5,460 nucleotides of DNA from a virus. Its lineage: Duplodnaviria; Heunggongvirae; Uroviricota; Caudoviricetes. Shown one piece after another: positions 1 to 5,460 of this stretch; the stretch's first letter is position 1, and each line of letters begins with the position of its first letter. The notes below the pieces were generated by a model. The model made no database searches. It was not told the DNA's origin and was given only the letters and a program-made list of their open reading frames with translations. The stretch spans positions 1 to 5,460 of the IMG/VR virus record IMGVR_UViG_2778261570_000010; one strand, given 5' to 3'. The position numbers and the translations under genes are program-made.

Positions 1-106
1 TGGGGCTTTTCTCTATCTGCCTTTTGGTGTTCATGCCTGAGACAGATAGCCTCAAGCACCCGCTGCAATCCTACTTAACTCTGCCGTTACAGCAAACCGT
101 TTTCGC

Positions 107-130
107 CCGATATGGGAATTCCCATATCGG
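107..130. repeat. Perfect 24-bp palindrome CCGATATGGGAATTCCCATATCGG centred on GAATTC; function unknown
   Basis: Read directly: positions 107-118 are the exact reverse complement of 119-130. No T-tract follows on either strand, so it is not a canonical intrinsic terminator. Lies about 120 bp downstream of the minus-strand binding-protein gene. Confidence 0.5.
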
Positions 131-195
131 AATGAATTCAGTTCACCTGGCGAGGCTTAGCGTACAATTTTTTCCGTTTTGTGAGCTGCCCCTAC

Positions 196-213
196 ATGCC
201 GCTGGCGCGGCAT
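196..213 (-). repeat. GC-rich stem-loop (7-bp stem ATGCCGC/GCGGCAT, 4-nt loop) with a partial REP-like flank (CCGGATGC on the minus strand)
   Basis: Inverted repeat seen in sequence, 37 nt downstream of the stop of the 250-1008 gene on the minus strand. Resemblance to enterobacterial REP elements is partial and from memory. No U-tract follows, so it is a possible 3' mRNA-stabilising hairpin rather than a terminator. Confidence 0.3.
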
Positions 214-249
214 CCGGAAAAAGAATCCACGTCCTGAAGAACGAGGATG

Positions 250-1008
250 TCAAGTGCCTTTCCTGGTCCAGCCATATTTTTTGAATGCAGGCGCCGCTTC
301 ATCGGTTTGTAGCCATTCTGCAAATCGACGGGTTTCATCATTTGCATCCTGACGTACTGTAATGTTCATATCACGCCATATCACGTAGTCTGGCGCTATT
401 TCCACGACATCACCAATTTCTGGATTACTGGCTGCCCAGTCAGCCCAGGTTATCCAGACATCTGCTCCAGGCTGATTCTCAAGAGCCTTACGTGCAGTTC
501 CGCTATTGGGCGCATATAAAATAATATTTTTTCGGATTGCGGCGACAGTTTCTATATTCCCTTTACGTCCAGCAATATCTTCCCAGACGCCAGTGCCTGA
601 TGTATTACTGGTACCACCACCATCATTAACAATTACGCCAATCCCAGGTCTGGTCAGGTCGTCAATACTCCGGATATTTTTAGGATTACCTTTCTTTACC
701 AGTAAAATACTTTTTCGCAGATAAAGAGGCTGAATATCTTTTTCACTGAAGCTGTCTTTATGGTCCCGAATGATAGCCAGAGCAGATTGTTCTGATGCGC
801 CAAACAAGATATCTGCATTTTTTTTGGCATCTTCATTCCATTTGTTCTGTGGGCCGTAATGAACGTTCACTATAATACCTGTTTTTTCGGCATAAAGTTT
901 GGCTGCATCAAGCAAGGCTGTATGCGGGCCACCAGGACCATACAGATTGATATCAGCATAAGCAGCAGAAGACAGGAATATTAAAAAACCTGCCATTATG
1001 TTCCTCAT
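250..1008 (-). CDS. Periplasmic substrate-binding protein, ModA-like (type-2 PBP, oxyanion-binding family), with N-terminal Sec signal peptide
   Basis: 252-aa ORF with ATG at 1008-1006, preceded by AAGGAG and a 6-nt spacer. N-terminus MRNIMAGFLIFLSSAAYA followed by DINLY looks like a signal peptide with an AxA cleavage site. The ADILFGAS segment and the C-terminal FKKYGWTRK resemble ModA motifs (PADLFISA, FKRYGFTIK) as I remember them. The gene looks more AT-rich than the replication genes. Confidence 0.75.
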   Translation of the reverse strand: MRNIMAGFLIFLSSAAYADINLYGPGGPHTALLDAAKLYAEKTGIIVNVHYGPQNKWNEDAKKNADILFGASEQSALAIIRDHKDSFSEKDIQPLYLRKSILLVKKGNPKNIRSIDDLTRPGIGVIVNDGGGTSNTSGTGVWEDIAGRKGNIETVAAIRKNIILYAPNSGTARKALENQPGADVWITWADWAASNPEIGDVVEIAPDYVIWRDMNITVRQDANDETRRFAEWLQTDEAAPAFKKYGWTRKGT

Positions 1009-1172
1009 AAAAAACTCCTTTTATTGGTTATCATGAAATAAAGTTATAAACACTACAAATAATATATATTACATCCAGATAAACTTATCCGACTTTACCT
1101 CGTGCATAGCTTGTTATTTAAAGTCAACAAAATAAGGAAAATTATACGCATATTGAAGAGTATAAACCTTAC

Positions 1173-1200
1173 ATGTTGATTACATTTTTGTAATCAACAT
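1173..1200. promoter_or_regulatory. Perfect inverted repeat ATGTTGATTACA-tttt-TGTAATCAACAT (12-bp arms, 4-bp spacer) in the AT-rich region upstream of the binding-protein gene; candidate regulator binding site
   Basis: Read directly: 1173-1184 is the reverse complement of 1189-1200. It sits about 165 bp upstream of the start codon at 1008, in a roughly 250-bp AT-rich non-coding stretch. No flanking T-tract that would make it an intrinsic terminator. Confidence 0.4.
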
Positions 1201-1259
1201 CCTGTTTGGAATAGCCAGCCTTTAATGGATAACTATTTCTGACAATGCAATGAGTATAA

Positions 1260-1738
1260 TCAAGTCCATCTTCCACTGAGAATTTGAGGCGGCATGCTTT
1301 TTCCGGCTCTTGCCGGATATCCGTAATTGTCCATAATCTGCAGATTTATACCTTCTGCATGACCTGTCAGCGAAAATTTGTCCGGTGTTTCTACGGGAAT
1401 GACATCAAAAGTTACACGCACTCGCGTTACCGTGTAGACCTACTTTCCTGCACTTGCAAGATCACAGTGGTGTAACCGTAACAGGAATTTATTCTCTGGA
1501 CCGGCAGTAAATCCCTGAGTGGCGTGGTTCCCATATCAATTTCCCGCCAGGCAGCCTCCATTGCCAGCGTACAGGCTGGAGCCATGACCTGCCCTTTAAA
1601 TCTGGCCCGACCATCCCACCGGACGTGTTCTTCTCCCCTGAACTTAGGTACAGTCATCTCCAGTGGCACAAAAGTGTCAGCGCCATAATTTTTGACCGTT
1701 ATCGCGCTACGGATATTTTGTTGACTGGTGAAAATCAC
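1260..1738 (-). pseudogene. Frame-disrupted ORF remnant of unknown function: GTG-initiated 103-aa frame (1427-1738) continues in another frame down to a stop at 1260-1262
   Basis: The 1427-1738 minus ORF ends at TAA 1427-1429, but a second minus frame is open from about 1439 to TGA at 1260-1262 and encodes protein-like sequence (…VTFDVIPVETPDKFSLTGHAEGINLQIMDNYGYPARAGKS…). Two consecutive protein-like frames separated by one frame change suggest a frameshifted gene. I do not recognise the family. Confidence 0.35.
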
Positions 1739-1867
1739 CCCGCAGAATCAGGCTTGTTCCCTTAACCCGGGCTTTCATCCTGACCGCCGCCTCACTACGA
1801 CCAATCAGACTGCCGATGCATTTTACCTTCATTGTTAGTATCATAATTTCAGGCCTGCACCATCCGC

Positions 1868-2509
1868 TCATTGCCCGGACTTCCGACAAATCCCGGCAAC
1901 CATATCCCGGTGCTTGTTCAGCTCCCGCAGCGCGGCGCAGACTCGCTCCCACTTCTGGACATGACTTTTCGCCCGGCGCAGTTCGCGGTTTGCCATATGC
2001 AGCGATGGTAAAATCAGGCCATTCGCTCGCGTTTCAGTAAACGATGGCAACGATTGCACAATATCAGCCACAGTTTCTGTTTTAATATCTTCCTGTGTTG
2101 CAGCTTCCTGTGCTGGTAAATTACCGCCCGGCATGCAGTAACGAAATTTACCGTTCTGATTAACGCGAATCAGACAACCTTTGCTGATTGCCATTGCCAG
2201 TGATGAGTTCACCCTGCGGGAAGTAATTCTGAACATCAATGCAAGTTCATCAGCAGCTTTAGGACCATGCCGTTCTATCGCCTCAATCAGCATCTGCGCT
2301 GTCACTTTCGGTGCCTGTGTCACAGTGTCATTTTCGTCGCTTTTTTCATTTGTCAGCCACCACATCGAGCCTTTGTTATCTGCCCACCCCCGACGCTTCA
2401 GCTTCCACAGTTCGTTAATCGCTTCATCGCGCGTCATTCCCAGACGTGCTGTAACTTCCTGTGATGAGGCTTTTCCCATCGCTTTCAGTGCGTCAAAAAC
2501 AGTCTCCAT
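1868..2509 (-). CDS. Prophage protein of unknown function with a winged-helix-like N-terminus; possibly DUF1627 family
   Basis: 213-aa ORF with ATG at 2509-2507, preceded by GGAGG and a 6-nt spacer; stop TGA at 1868-1870. The N-terminal METVFDALKAMGKASSQEVTARLGMTRDEAINELWKLKRRGW looks like a small winged-helix DNA-binding fold. The DUF1627 assignment is from memory and unverified. Confidence 0.7.
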   Translation of the reverse strand: METVFDALKAMGKASSQEVTARLGMTRDEAINELWKLKRRGWADNKGSMWWLTNEKSDENDTVTQAPKVTAQMLIEAIERHGPKAADELALMFRITSRRVNSSLAMAISKGCLIRVNQNGKFRYCMPGGNLPAQEAATQEDIKTETVADIVQSLPSFTETRANGLILPSLHMANRELRRAKSHVQKWERVCAALRELNKHRDMVAGICRKSGQ

Positions 2510-2541
2510 AAATTTCCTCCCGGTAAAAATTACTTCTCAAA

Positions 2542-3207
2542 TCAGACAAACCCAGCCGCTTTCCGGCGTTCATACTCCTGTTTCAGCAACTCAATTGGTG
2601 TTGGCCCCGACGGGCGTTTTGGTGCTGCCAGTTGCCGCCGTACGGGCGGAACGCTGAGGCCGTTACCAACATGCTTTGCCCATTTTGTAAGCTGCCGTTC
2701 CGCAAGTCGTTTTAACTCCCCCTCGGTCATCTGCCGCTCAATCCCCTTTGAACGCATCTCGAGGCAAATGTGATACAGCACAGGCTGAGACCACGGGTAT
2801 TTATCGCTCCCGTCGTATCGCCAGGACTCGTTGCGCCAGCGGCGGTACTCCTCCATCACGTTATCCACCGTCAGACCAAATGGATTTGCCCCACTCTCCG
2901 AAATCAGCGCAACAAACTCAGCCAGGTCCGGAGGCCATGTTTCACCCGCCCGGCAGCGGTCCATGCACTGGCGGCAGACCTGTCGGATTTGCTGCTCAGT
3001 CATCGCACCAATCTGTGCAATCCAGAGCTTCGAAGGTGCGGCCCCGTTCTTCTGGGTCCAGCGGTTCGAATAAACCTCCCCCATGAGTTCCCACAGCTTC
3101 CACGCCGTTTCCGTCGAGGATAAATCCGTTTTCACGTTCCCACTGCTCACGTGCTGCCCGAATTTCCTGAACTGCCCGTGATGCGGTGTCACCTGGTGCT
3201 GCTGCAT
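2542..3207 (-). CDS. Replication protein P-like (lambda P family, DnaB helicase loader)
   Basis: 221-aa ORF. Aligns by eye with remembered lambda P: the YPW motif, TEGELKRLAERQL versus TDAELRRKAADEL, and a similar C-terminal tail. ATG at 3207-3205 is preceded by AGGGGG and a 6-nt spacer. That start lies 212 nt inside the O-like ORF in another frame. Internal ATGs at 3084 and 3003 are alternatives, but they would remove residues that align with lambda P. Confidence 0.75.
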   Translation of the reverse strand: MQQHQVTPHHGQFRKFGQHVSSGNVKTDLSSTETAWKLWELMGEVYSNRWTQKNGAAPSKLWIAQIGAMTEQQIRQVCRQCMDRCRAGETWPPDLAEFVALISESGANPFGLTVDNVMEEYRRWRNESWRYDGSDKYPWSQPVLYHICLEMRSKGIERQMTEGELKRLAERQLTKWAKHVGNGLSVPPVRRQLAAPKRPSGPTPIELLKQEYERRKAAGFV

Positions 3208-4036
3208 GGTTTACCCCCTTGCTGACTGGTTTAACCTGCGCCCTGACGTGATTTACGTGACGGGCGAATTTCTGCTCCCACTGAACCTGCGTGAACACTT
3301 TGCCCTCATCGCTCCAGTAATCCCGGAATGCGGCAAGTTCAGCAGGTGTAAATTCCGGCTCCGGCAGAGCCACTCCCCACAGAGCCGCCCGTCGTCGAAA
3401 ATCCCGTGACGGATGCCAGCTATCGGTCATCGGAAATTTTCCGATGGGTTCGCTCAGGCCATCCAGGAATACGGGTGGCACTGCCTGTAACGACAAAACT
3501 TCCTGCTCACTGGTCGGAGCACTCTCGCGTGCGTTATGTGTGGGGTTTAGATCTTTGGGTTCCTTTGGGTTCCGTGATCCGTTTTTGGGTGTCTTTGATG
3601 GAAAATTTGGGTGTCTTTGGTTATTTTCCATGCAGCTAAGAGTTCCGTTTTTGGGTCTGTTTTGTGCTGAAACATAACCATTTTCGGTACTGTTTTTATT
3701 AACAGTACCAATTTTACCCACCTTTAAAGACTCCCGTTTTTGGGTGTATTCAGGCTCGGCAACACTTTCTTCTACACCGATAAGTCGGTACACTACGATT
3801 TGCTTTGTTCGGCCTTTTCTCTCACCGGTATCAACAATTAACCCAATCTCCATCAGGTGTCGTAAGCTGTCCTGCACAGTCTTTTTGTTCAGTTCCGTTA
3901 CTTCTGCCAGGGCAGATACAGACGGGTATGCACACAAATCGGCACCGCACATATCAGCAAGCCAGGTCAATACTGACTTACTGGATGAACTGCCGGTTTT
4001 CACCTTTTTAGCCCATCGTAGTGCATCGATACTCAT
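2996..4036 (-). CDS. Replication initiator (O-like): N-terminal HTH DNA-binding domain, low-complexity linker, C-terminal DnaT-like ssDNA-binding domain
   Basis: Start chosen at ATG 4036-4034 (MSIDALRWAKK…), preceded by AGGGG and a 5-nt spacer. The longest ORF begins at a TTG at 4111 with no SD. The C-terminal region (GKFPMTDSWHPSRDFRRRAALWGVALPEPEFTPAELAAFRDYWSDEGKVFTQVQWEQKFARH) closely matches the C-terminal domain of E. coli DnaT as I remember it. The linker has repeated PKNG motifs encoded by the iterons. Stop TGA at 2998-2996. Confidence 0.8.
   Translation of the reverse strand: MSIDALRWAKKVKTGSSSSKSVLTWLADMCGADLCAYPSVSALAEVTELNKKTVQDSLRHLMEIGLIVDTGERKGRTKQIVVYRLIGVEESVAEPEYTQKRESLKVGKIGTVNKNSTENGYVSAQNRPKNGTLSCMENNQRHPNFPSKTPKNGSRNPKEPKDLNPTHNARESAPTSEQEVLSLQAVPPVFLDGLSEPIGKFPMTDSWHPSRDFRRRAALWGVALPEPEFTPAELAAFRDYWSDEGKVFTQVQWEQKFARHVNHVRAQVKPVSKGVNHAAAPGDTASRAVQEIRAAREQWERENGFILDGNGVEAVGTHGGGLFEPLDPEERGRTFEALDCTDWCDD
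3551..3752. other. Putative phage origin of replication: iteron cluster (core TTTGGGT, longer form CCGTTTTTGGGTGTCTTTG) plus AT-rich segment with a 9-bp inverted repeat, inside the O-like gene
   Basis: Direct repeats seen at 3554-3560, 3564-3570, 3579-3597, 3606-3619, 3645-3663 and 3734-3752. AT-rich stretch at 3664-3730 contains GGTACTGTT-ttttat-AACAGTACC (3686-3709). The layout (iterons plus AT-rich region in the initiator's interdomain linker) mirrors ori-lambda inside gene O. Confidence 0.55.
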
Positions 4037-4559
4037 ACGAACCCCTGGCAGACATTTGTTTATCTGCAAAGTAATATTGATATTGCTGACGATACGCATG
4101 CTTGAAAGCAATAGCTTTTTCTATAAGCTCGTCAGTCTCACGTTCCACAACAGCTGGATCCGCAAAAAGCAGCCCGGACTCCACCACATCGCCATATTCT
4201 TTGTTTAATCCGGCGATCATGTACGTAATGCTTTTTCCATCACTGATCTCACGATACAACCTGAAATCACTAATTCGGATAGCCTCCATAATTGCCGGAA
4301 TCAGCGCCGTGAATTTTTTCCGCTTATCCCTGGTGTCGATAGCTTTCCAGCGTTCGAATATCTTCACCCGGTTAACGCCCAGCGCCCGTTGATCAACCTC
4401 GCCATCATTAAACGTGACGCGTTGAACATCGATGTTCGGGCGTTCTTTCAGAGCCCAGAATGCTTCCGTGATTAATATCGTCGCCTGCTCCTGTGTCATT
4501 CCTGGTCGACATATCCAGGCATCCAGAGCCTCACGAGCCTGTTCAGGAGTGATTTTCAT
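4008..4559 (-). CDS. YdaT-family protein (prophage cII-position regulator)
   Basis: 183-aa ORF immediately downstream of the Cro-like gene, overlapping its stop by 17 nt. ATG at 4559-4557; stop TAA at 4010-4008. Resembles remembered Rac YdaT (MKI… N-terminus; the LIPAI…RL segment). Its position matches cII in lambdoid early-right operons. Confidence 0.65.
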   Translation of the reverse strand: MKITPEQAREALDAWICRPGMTQEQATILITEAFWALKERPNIDVQRVTFNDGEVDQRALGVNRVKIFERWKAIDTRDKRKKFTALIPAIMEAIRISDFRLYREISDGKSITYMIAGLNKEYGDVVESGLLFADPAVVERETDELIEKAIAFKHAYRQQYQYYFADKQMSARGSYEYRCTTMG

Positions 4560-4773
4560 TGTTCAACCGCCCCGCCCGCTTCGTCTTACGATATTCATCA
4601 TAAACTTTGGGATCATACTGAAGCTCCCCGCCAGATGCCTCCTGTAGACGCATCGCGCGACCTTCGGGAACTAAATCCCCTTTCCAGCTATAAAGCGAAG
4701 CCAAACGAATACCTGCTGCTTGTGCAAGTTTTGTTTTTGAACCGAAATACAAAAGAGCGTCAGTTTTAAGCAT
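4543..4773 (-). CDS. dicC: Cro-like HTH repressor, DicC-type
   Basis: 76-aa ORF divergent from the CI-like gene; ATG at 4773-4771 preceded by AAGGTG and a 7-nt spacer. The sequence (MLKTDALLYFGSKTKLAQAAGIRLASLYSWKG…) has the Cro fold signature and matches my recollection of E. coli DicC. The gene symbol is from memory and needs BLAST confirmation. Confidence 0.8.
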   Translation of the reverse strand: MLKTDALLYFGSKTKLAQAAGIRLASLYSWKGDLVPEGRAMRLQEASGGELQYDPKVYDEYRKTKRAGRLNNENHS

Positions 4774-4856
4774 TTAAAACACCTTTATTGTTAGTCATAA
4801 CTAACAAGATAGATGTTAACAAAAACATAGTCAATACGATTTAGCATTAGCTAACT
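4774..4856. promoter_or_regulatory. Divergent dicC/dicA control region with two 14-bp palindromic operator candidates and a candidate leftward promoter
   Basis: Palindromes TTAGTCATAACTAA (4791-4804) and TTAGCATTAGCTAA (4841-4854) read directly. On the minus strand: -35 TTGACT (plus 4834-4829), 17-bp spacer, -10 TATCTT (plus 4811-4806). The first palindrome overlaps the predicted transcription start of dicC; the second ends 2 nt before the dicA ATG. Confidence 0.5.
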
Positions 4857-5264
4857 ATGGAAACAAAAAATTTAACTATCGGCGAACGCATCAGGTATCG
4901 TCGGAAAAACCTCAAACACACCCAAAGGTCTCTTGCTAAAGCCCTGAAAATCTCCCATGTGTCTGTATCACAATGGGAACGGGGTGATAGTGAACCTACA
5001 GGGAAGAACCTTTTTGCCCTCAGCAAAGTATTGCAATGCTCACCAACATGGATTCTATTTGGCGATGAAGACAAGCAACCAACACCACCTGTTGAGAAGC
5101 CAGTTGCCTTATCCCCCAAAGAACTAGAGCTCCTTGAGCTGTTTAATGCACTGCCAGAATCAGAACAGGATACCCAGCTCGCCGAAATGCGAGCTCGAGT
5201 AAAAAACTTCAATAAACTCTTTGAAGAATTACTAAAAGCCCGTCAGCGGACAAATAAAAGATAA
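4857..5264 (+). CDS. dicA: CI-like phage repressor of the DicA type (XRE-family HTH, no S24 peptidase domain)
   Basis: 135-aa ORF, ATG 4857, stop TAA 5262-5264. N-terminal HTH (…HTQRSLAKALKISHVSVSQWERG…) with a helical C-terminus. The sequence matches my recollection of E. coli Qin-prophage DicA, with divergent Cro-like partner. Symbol from memory, unverified. Confidence 0.85.
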   Translation: METKNLTIGERIRYRRKNLKHTQRSLAKALKISHVSVSQWERGDSEPTGKNLFALSKVLQCSPTWILFGDEDKQPTPPVEKPVALSPKELELLELFNALPESEQDTQLAEMRARVKNFNKLFEELLKARQRTNKR

Positions 5265-5286
5265 CATCATCAATGAGTTATCTTTT
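5256..5286 (+). terminator. Weak AT-rich hairpin (AAAAGATAAC … GTTATCTTTT) overlapping the dicA stop codon; possible terminator
   Basis: 10-bp inverted repeat with an 11-nt loop, ending in TTTT, seen in sequence. The stem has only two G-C pairs, so stability and function are uncertain. Confidence 0.25.
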
Positions 5287-5324
5287 ACCACATCAATTAT
5301 GTTAGCTATAGCATACAAAATCAC

Positions 5325-5353
5325 TTGACCGATATGTTAGTCATGGCTAATCT
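5325..5353 (+). promoter_or_regulatory. Candidate rightward promoter (-35 TTGACC, 17-bp spacer, -10 TAATCT) overlapped by a third operator-like palindrome TTAGTCATGGCTAA (5337-5350)
   Basis: Motifs read directly. The palindrome shares the TTAGY-N4-RCTAA pattern with the two sites in the dicC/dicA intergenic region. Location matches the position, as I recall it, of the DicA-repressed dicB-operon promoter downstream of dicA in E. coli K-12. Confidence 0.45.
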
Positions 5354-5430
5354 TGTTTGCATCAACACACCGCACGGTGTTCTCAGCAAACAGTTCCGCT
5401 ACCCCAGCGTTAAGGGGAAATGAGGTCAGC

Positions 5431-5460
5431 ATGGATACTATCGATCTTGGCAACAACGAA
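5431..5460 (+). CDS. 5' end of a small ORF (MDTIDLGNNE…), truncated by the window edge; possibly ydfA-like, first gene of the rightward operon
   Basis: ATG at 5431 preceded by GAGG (5422-5425) and a 5-nt spacer. Only 10 codons are visible. The ydfA resemblance is from memory of the K-12 gene order (dicA, ydfA, ydfB, ydfC, dicF, dicB). Confidence 0.4.
   Translation, partial: MDTIDLGNNE

Follow-up and report, generated by a model that had tools for sequence, protein, structure and literature searches.

Background

The gene z2053 of Escherichia coli O157:H7 EDL933, also named adfO, is a virulence factor located on O-island 57 (OI-57) (PMC8565820, PMC10562709). Mutants of adfO show reduced adherence to HeLa cells (PMC8565820), and transcription of the EDL933 homologue is higher in the contents of the bovine rumen and rectum (PMC8524897). 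According to the literature, adfO is "always" found together with ckf (z2054), a gene for cell killing that is associated with phages (PMC8565820, PMC10562709). The gene is synonymous with paa, the porcine attaching-and-effacing-associated factor, and serves as a virulence marker for EHEC, EPEC, porcine ETEC and O-island 57.

Two homologues have been crystallised, PEB3 of Campylobacter jejuni (PDB 2hxw, 3fir, 3fjg, 3fj7) and AcfC of Vibrio cholerae (VC_0841, PDB 4jb7). AcfC is a periplasmic protein with a binding preference for heparin, chondroitin sulfate and mucin over hyaluronic acid, and it is needed for mucin chemotaxis and for a normal intestinal distribution, not for adhesion to cell lines (PMC5976639). 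The published roles within this group thus disagree: Paa and PEB3 are called adhesins, PEB3 is also described as a transporter component, whereas AcfC acts in chemotaxis and has no role in cell-line adhesion.

On the phage side, bor and lom of phage lambda are lysogenic-conversion (moron) genes of lambdoid phages. We compare these systems with a stretch of 5,460 nucleotides from a member of the Caudoviricetes (positions 1 to 5,460 of the IMG/VR record IMGVR_UViG_2778261570_000010), which is called the window throughout. A sequence-only reading of the window had pointed out a gene for a secreted binding protein beside the replication module and had interpreted it as an orphan, ModA-like candidate moron. 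This reading is partly supported; its moron part holds, while its ModA/oxyanion part does not.

The window encodes Paa

On the minus strand, the window contains an ATG-start open reading frame of 252 aa at positions 250-1008. The encoded protein matches RefSeq WP_001449026.1, annotated as "AcfC family adhesin Paa" in strain TUM9757, with 100% amino acid identity. When the window was compared with complete E. coli genomes by megablast, the matching region likewise carried the annotation paa, AcfC family adhesin Paa. On the DNA level, paa alone reaches 100% and 99.9% identity to annotated paa genes, including those of O157:H7, O55:H7, O145, O111 and O103 strains. The gene is therefore paa; the match is exact and leaves nothing realistic by which this identity could be overturned. 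We are likewise highly confident in the wider description of the gene as prophage cargo that encodes a stand-alone anion-binding colonisation factor. The binding-protein fold and the placement in the AcfC/PEB3/Paa family, by an SBP_bac_11 match and by structure matches to PEB3 and AcfC, are described further below.

Deposited genomes of PPompW phages, with or without an adjoining Stx2a phage, already annotate the gene as Paa/AdfO in the same gene order, and they share with the window the succession dicA, dicC, ydaT, O, P, DUF1627, fimbrial relic, paa and hok. As reported for adfO, paa of the window is paired with the hok-like ckf (PMC8565820). Between the known Paa/AdfO (z2053 on OI-57 of EDL933; PPompW prophages of O145:H28) and the window gene, whose protein sequence is identical to RefSeq Paa, there is no difference of substance; only the surrounding prophage mosaic differs. 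Hence, what the sequence-only reading had treated as an uncharacterised orphan is a named and experimentally studied gene. Since paa/adfO is in use as a virulence marker, recognising it guards against announcing a known gene as a novelty. Publications or annotations already cover the gene itself, its prophage location, its pairing with a hok-like gene and its homology to AcfC and PEB3, and the additions made here are small ones, namely the boundaries of a paa cassette (~190-1202) and the systematic lack of partner genes across taxa.

Prophage context and distribution in E. coli

In TUM9757, the closest complete genome, the window is part of a lambdoid prophage whose integration site is beside yccA. 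The prophage begins with genes for an integrase and an exonuclease and with dicB, followed by dicA facing dicC, a ydaT-like gene, the gene of a DnaT-like (O-type) replication protein, P and DUF1627. A fimbrial pseudogene, paa and hokD come next, and RusA, Q, the lysis genes and the terminase complete the order. Several IS insertions are present in this prophage. The paa slot is thus flanked by the replication module (O-like, P, DUF1627) on one side and by hokD on the other, in a lambdoid prophage of the Qin/DicA type with DicA/DicC immunity.

Among 5,426 complete E. coli genomes, 611 carry paa, in 564 of them with at least 99% identity. The places comprise 582 on chromosomes and 36 on plasmids. 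About 91% of the paa-positive genomes carry the gene in the same prophage context, while the prophages themselves are found at different chromosomal sites. At least 80% of the whole window is found in one place in 556 genomes, so that the gene does travel with the prophage, and parts of the window are found in 4,884 genomes. Over its full length, the window has its best complete-genome match in TUM9757 with 96.6% identity, and paa with its flanks is 99.9-100% identical in other strains. Such a mosaic would fit with exchange between lambdoid prophages by recombination.

One sibling prophage lacks paa and has six small hypothetical genes in the slot between DUF1627 and hokD instead. When the hok-side and DUF1627 flanks were joined and used as a query for the empty site, no place was found in which both halves abut. 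There is thus no simple empty site, and other genes occupy the slot.

By this pattern of presence and absence, the view of paa as a lysogenic-conversion (moron-type) cargo gene is supported. Its presence is patchy at a fixed slot among related prophages, and its base composition is unlike that of DUF1627, P and the O-like gene. Along this line, paa resembles bor and lom of lambda in being an extra gene of deviant base composition that only some sibling prophages carry. It also has a ribosome binding site and an upstream region of its own, and its product would act in the cell envelope to the benefit of the host. Two differences stand against these similarities: paa lies in an early-right (nin-like) position and not in the late region, and the same cassette also circulates on plasmids. 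Horizontal acquisition of a cargo gene, as proposed by the sequence-only reading, is in good accordance with the presence in 611 of the 5,426 genomes, with the variable slot and with the plasmid-borne cassette.

Features surrounding paa in the window

At the hok side, the window starts within a hok/sok (hokD, also ckf) toxin-antitoxin locus (1-61, minus strand), which is matched by the Rfam model sok RF01794 with 58.3 bits (E=1.9e-11). This is just under the gathering score of 59 because the match is cut by the end of the window; in TUM9757 the hokD coding sequence lies just past the window edge. The locus is a type I toxin-antitoxin system and corresponds to the "ckf" that is always reported beside adfO.

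On the other side of paa, a frameshifted relic of a PapH-like fimbrial subunit extends from 1168 to 1701 on the minus strand. Its frames are broken, and it is a RefSeq pseudogene in TUM9757. The relic is distantly similar (~70%) to papH. Intact homologues with ~85% identity form the second gene of chaperone-usher Pap-like operons, one on a plasmid and one on a chromosome. The relic is carried together with paa in 573 genomes, and this joint occurrence suggests that part of a fimbrial operon entered the prophage along with paa.

Some further observations concern the replication and immunity genes. Within the DnaT-like (O-type) replication gene, positions 3554-3752 contain four to six direct repeats of ~14-19 nt (CCGTTTTTGGGTGT... 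and TTTGGGTGTCTTTG), which look like origin iterons placed within an initiator gene, as in phage lambda. The ORF list of the window holds a P-like ORF of 221 aa (2542-3207, minus strand) that overlaps the O-like gene (2995-4035, minus strand) by ~210 nt; P of RefSeq has 153 aa, starts with MTEQQ at window position 3002 and overlaps O by 8 nt. The longer form is probably artificial and due to the choice of the earliest start codon. Between the divergent dicC and dicA lies an operator-like palindrome, TGTTAGTCATAACTAACA (4789-4806), and related copies are located 3' of dicA, ahead of the next gene (5298-5312 and 5335-5350). A perfect hairpin with 11-nt arms follows immediately 3' of the dicA stop codon (5255-5287).

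Base composition and expression signals

The sequence-only reading had described paa as more AT-rich than the replication genes and as equipped with a strong ribosome binding site and an AT-rich upstream region, all of which the measurements bear out. The GC content of paa is 43.7% (GC3 34%), against 50.6% for DUF1627, 57.7% for P and 50.8% for the O-like gene, with GC3 values of 50-64% for these three. The contrast is genuine, yet paa is not alone in it, as dicA, dicC and ydaT also have only 44-47% GC. The motif AAGGAG (1015-1020, minus strand; CTCCTT on the plus strand) is located 6 nt 5' of the ATG, and the intergenic stretch 5' of paa (1009-1167, 159 nt) has a GC content of 25.8%. The AT-rich upstream region, presumed to be regulatory, comprises 1009-1172 on the minus strand and aligns over its whole length with the plasmid-borne copy described below.

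A scan of the coding (minus) strand from 1009 to 1200 for the sigma-70 consensus gave no match, and we therefore name no promoter for paa. Just past the paa stop codon, a consensus scan picked up a weak terminator-like hairpin with a T-rich tail (230-243, minus strand); such hairpins were found in a number no higher than in shuffled sequences. Independent transcription of paa and read-through from the early-right operon upon prophage induction are both possible, the latter since paa is oriented in the same way as that operon. With regard to H-NS, we infer only that it may silence the AT-rich region upstream of paa.

Boundaries of a mobile paa cassette

Perfect inverted repeats with 12-nt arms occur just twice in the whole window, and the two flank paa. 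One, ATGTTGATTACA-N4-TGTAATCAACAT, is located at 1173-1200; the other, CCGATATGGGAATTCCCATATCGG, is a perfect 24-nt palindrome without loop at 107-130. Both were found by an inverted-repeat search, and among 2,000 block-shuffles of window positions 1-1900 only three gave even one perfect inverted repeat with 12-nt arms.

A plasmid-borne variant of Paa with 92% amino acid identity to the window protein delimits the cassette. It is encoded on an IncF plasmid between DUF4238 and the yacAB genes, and no transporter genes were found beside it. Homology between plasmid and window DNA is restricted to window positions 190-1202, with 88.7% identity. On the 5' side of paa it ends at 1202, immediately beyond the palindrome at 1173-1200. 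This palindrome is conserved in its 10-nt core arms and marks the 5' edge of the cassette. On the 3' side homology starts at ~190, just ahead of a GC-rich hairpin at 196-213 (7-nt arms ATGCCGC/GCGGCAT, 4-nt loop) that is conserved in the plasmid copy.

The 107-130 palindrome was also considered as a cassette boundary and rejected. Prophages without paa have window positions 62 to ~150 in common with the window at ~89-90% identity, including this palindrome, and it is thus part of the hok-side prophage backbone. Accordingly, the earlier statement that paa is bracketed by perfect palindromes is correct in that both are present and flank the gene, but only one of them belongs to the cassette, whose 3' hairpin is that at 196-213. 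Lying between the paa cassette and hok/sok, the 107-130 palindrome might serve for insulation, for termination or for the binding of a protein.

Judged from these alignments, the mobile unit is a segment of ~1.0 kb (~190-1202), composed of paa, ~190 nt of AT-rich upstream sequence and ~60 nt downstream. The same ~1 kb cassette is found in prophages and on plasmids.

Paa belongs to the AcfC/PEB3/Paa family

Paa has a type II periplasmic-binding-protein fold: its residues 20-247 match the Pfam family SBP_bac_11 (PF13531) with E=5.5e-34 and 118.3 bits, compared with a gathering cut-off of 25. The best matches among solved structures are C. jejuni PEB3 (E=1.2e-81, residues 11-248) and V. cholerae AcfC (E=3.5e-81, residues 16-248); sulfate-binding proteins come next with E values of only 1e-4. 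Over the mature length, Paa is 54% identical to PEB3 and 52% identical to AcfC.

Codons 1-18 (955-1008, minus strand) encode a predicted Sec signal peptide, MRNIMAGFLIFLSSAAYA, which ends in AYA|D and is of the typical Sec type. The predicted cleavage before D19 was read from the sequence and from the start of mature PEB3, as the crystallised mature chains (2hxw, 3fj7) begin at the residue aligned with D19. A lipobox cysteine is absent from the N-terminus of Paa.

When Paa, PEB3, AcfC and the plasmid variant are aligned, three loops are invariant: S134-N-T-S-G-T139, P167-N-S-G170 and A172-R-K174. In PEB3, the SNTSGT, PNSG and ARK loops are ligand contacts, and in Paa they are putative anion-binding loops. 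On the grounds of full-length similarity, size, features of an exported protein, these loops and the stand-alone gene, Paa is placed in the AcfC/PEB3/Paa family: it shows the ~250 aa, the predicted cleavable Sec signal peptide, the single binding-protein fold and the putative anion-binding loops of this family.

PEB3 shares with Paa the fold, the invariant loops and the lack of an adjacent ABC transporter; it differs in being encoded by a chromosomal gene. Two local differences were noted. K135 of PEB3, beside the anion loop, is T133 in Paa, and the DFNVS stretch, presumably around the reported N-glycosylation site of PEB3, reads DSFSE in Paa. AcfC likewise has the same fold and motifs, and like Paa it is a colonisation factor encoded on a mobile element, in its case a pathogenicity element (PMC5976639). 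In contrast to paa, which has no chemoreceptor neighbour, acfC is immediately preceded by the chemoreceptor gene acfB (PMC5976639). The reported effects differ as well, with AcfC acting on mucin chemotaxis and Paa promoting adherence.

Paa and its relatives lack a conserved partner gene

As the sequence-only reading had stated, the window contains no ABC permease or ATPase gene, and none was found within 18 kb on either side in TUM9757. In order to place this in the context of the family, we collected 25 loci encoding relatives from contigs representing one genome per species. Their sources were E. albertii, Citrobacter, Edwardsiella, Aeromonas, Vibrio, Francisella, Endozoicomonas, Campylobacter, Helicobacter, Desulfovibrio, Mucispirillaceae, a spirochaete, Cetobacterium and Elioraea. 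As the Elioraea contig of 910 bp was without flanks, it was left out, and 24 loci were used. The three nearest ORFs per side, 137 proteins in total, were compared with Pfam.

These 24 loci revealed no recurrent partner, be it an ABC or MFS component, a chemoreceptor or a kinase, and no protein family occurred at more than four of them. The commonest neighbours, DcuC and Peptidase_M20, were found at four loci each, the DcuC-type carriers in loci of the Campylobacter group only. Not one of the 137 neighbours combined a Walker A motif with the ABC signature (LSGGQ). A chemoreceptor (dCache, HAMP, MCPsignal) is encoded only before the V. cholerae copy, where it is acfB. As no ABC permease or ATPase gene was found at any of the 24 loci, the transporter-less state is a trait of the whole family and not a peculiarity of the prophage copy.

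Relatives of Paa occur as single genes in gut bacteria of other phyla, with identities of 70% in Mucispirillaceae, 73% in Desulfovibrio from goat caecum, 59% in the spirochaete and 53% in Cetobacterium. Their neighbourhoods are unrelated. From the sequences compared, this distribution points to horizontal transfer of the Paa family among intestinal bacteria across phyla.

Proposed function and alternative explanations

Paa is predicted to be exported via its Sec signal peptide. By homology and by the literature, its two-lobed fold would bind a small or polymeric anionic ligand between the lobes, and the protein, having no dedicated importer, would promote adherence and intestinal colonisation. 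Its action might be direct, that of a surface-exposed adhesin, or it might be indirect and depend on sensing, as in the mucin chemotaxis to which AcfC contributes. We draw these functional steps from the homologues and from published work with near-identical alleles.

The indirect route can be taken further. Paa might be no adhesin at all, but a prophage-delivered periplasmic sensor of a host-derived phosphorylated or sulfated compound that plugs into a resident chemoreceptor, signalling or secretion pathway. This is modelled on AcfC, which appears to work with the AcfB chemoreceptor in V. cholerae, and we put it forward tentatively, as an idea that is speculative and rather doubtful.

The main rival to a colonisation factor acting on its own is that Paa constitutes the substrate-binding part of an uptake system, takes up an anionic, e.g., phosphorylated, metabolite in the periplasm and passes it to a membrane transporter whose gene lies at another site of the host chromosome. 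The fold, which is that of transporter binding proteins, and the invariance of the putative anion-binding loops speak for it. However, no permease or ATPase gene is found beside the 24 homologues or within 18 kb of paa, a single gene that crosses phyla would need to dock on unrelated resident transporters, and the published phenotypes are adhesion and chemotaxis rather than growth on a substrate (PMC8565820, PMC5976639). We regard this explanation as unlikely.

Much less credible is a molybdate/tungstate binder or sequesterer of the ModA/TupA/WtpA type, the framing favoured by the sequence-only reading. ModA and the sulfate-binding Sbp/CysP, the binding proteins of ABC importers, share with Paa the broad SBP_bac_11 fold, ModA's own Pfam family, and models of both kinds give weak local matches around the anion-binding loop. 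Their family cut-offs are far out of reach, however. The modA model TIGR01256 scores 18.3 bits (cut-off 62.5) and the ModA model NF002920 17.7 bits (cut-off 470), and both matches cover only ~35 residues at one end. Among the Sbp/CysP models, TIGR00971 (sulfate/thiosulfate-binding) reaches 21.5 bits (cut-off 155.5), NF008022 22.6 bits (cut-off 288) and NF008106 19 bits (cut-off 308). Neither modBC nor cysTWA partners are located near paa. Since all scores remain below the cut-offs and the full-length relatives are PEB3 and AcfC, "ModA-like" is true of the fold only. Membership in the ModA/TupA/WtpA families was rejected, and the family scores effectively refute this explanation.

It is also highly improbable that paa is a decaying, non-functional passenger like the adjacent fimbrial pseudogene. 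Such a fate could be suspected from the frameshifted relic next to it and from the IS insertions in the TUM9757 prophage. Against it, 564 genomes carry the gene with an identity of at least 99%, its ORF is intact, the signal peptide, the ribosome binding site and the family-invariant motifs are all kept, and both transcription (PMC8524897) and a mutant phenotype (PMC8565820) have been published. Finally, no supporting point was found for a conserved chromosomal gene with transporter partners just outside the window, and the absence from all but 611 of the 5,426 complete genomes, the location inside a prophage with integrase, replication, Q, lysis and terminase genes, the several prophage sites and plasmids and the absence of ABC genes within 18 kb on either side refute a chromosomal core gene and leave this explanation practically no chance.

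With the identity of the gene settled as paa, the remaining question is one of biochemistry: which natural ligand the protein binds, and whether it acts as an adhesin, as a chemosensory co-receptor or as an uptake component. The cassette boundaries and the missing partner gene frame this question without answering it. If the tentative sensor model were true, the prophage would re-tune the site at which its host settles in the gut, and what spreads as a single gene among gut bacteria of different phyla would be a portable module for niche sensing.
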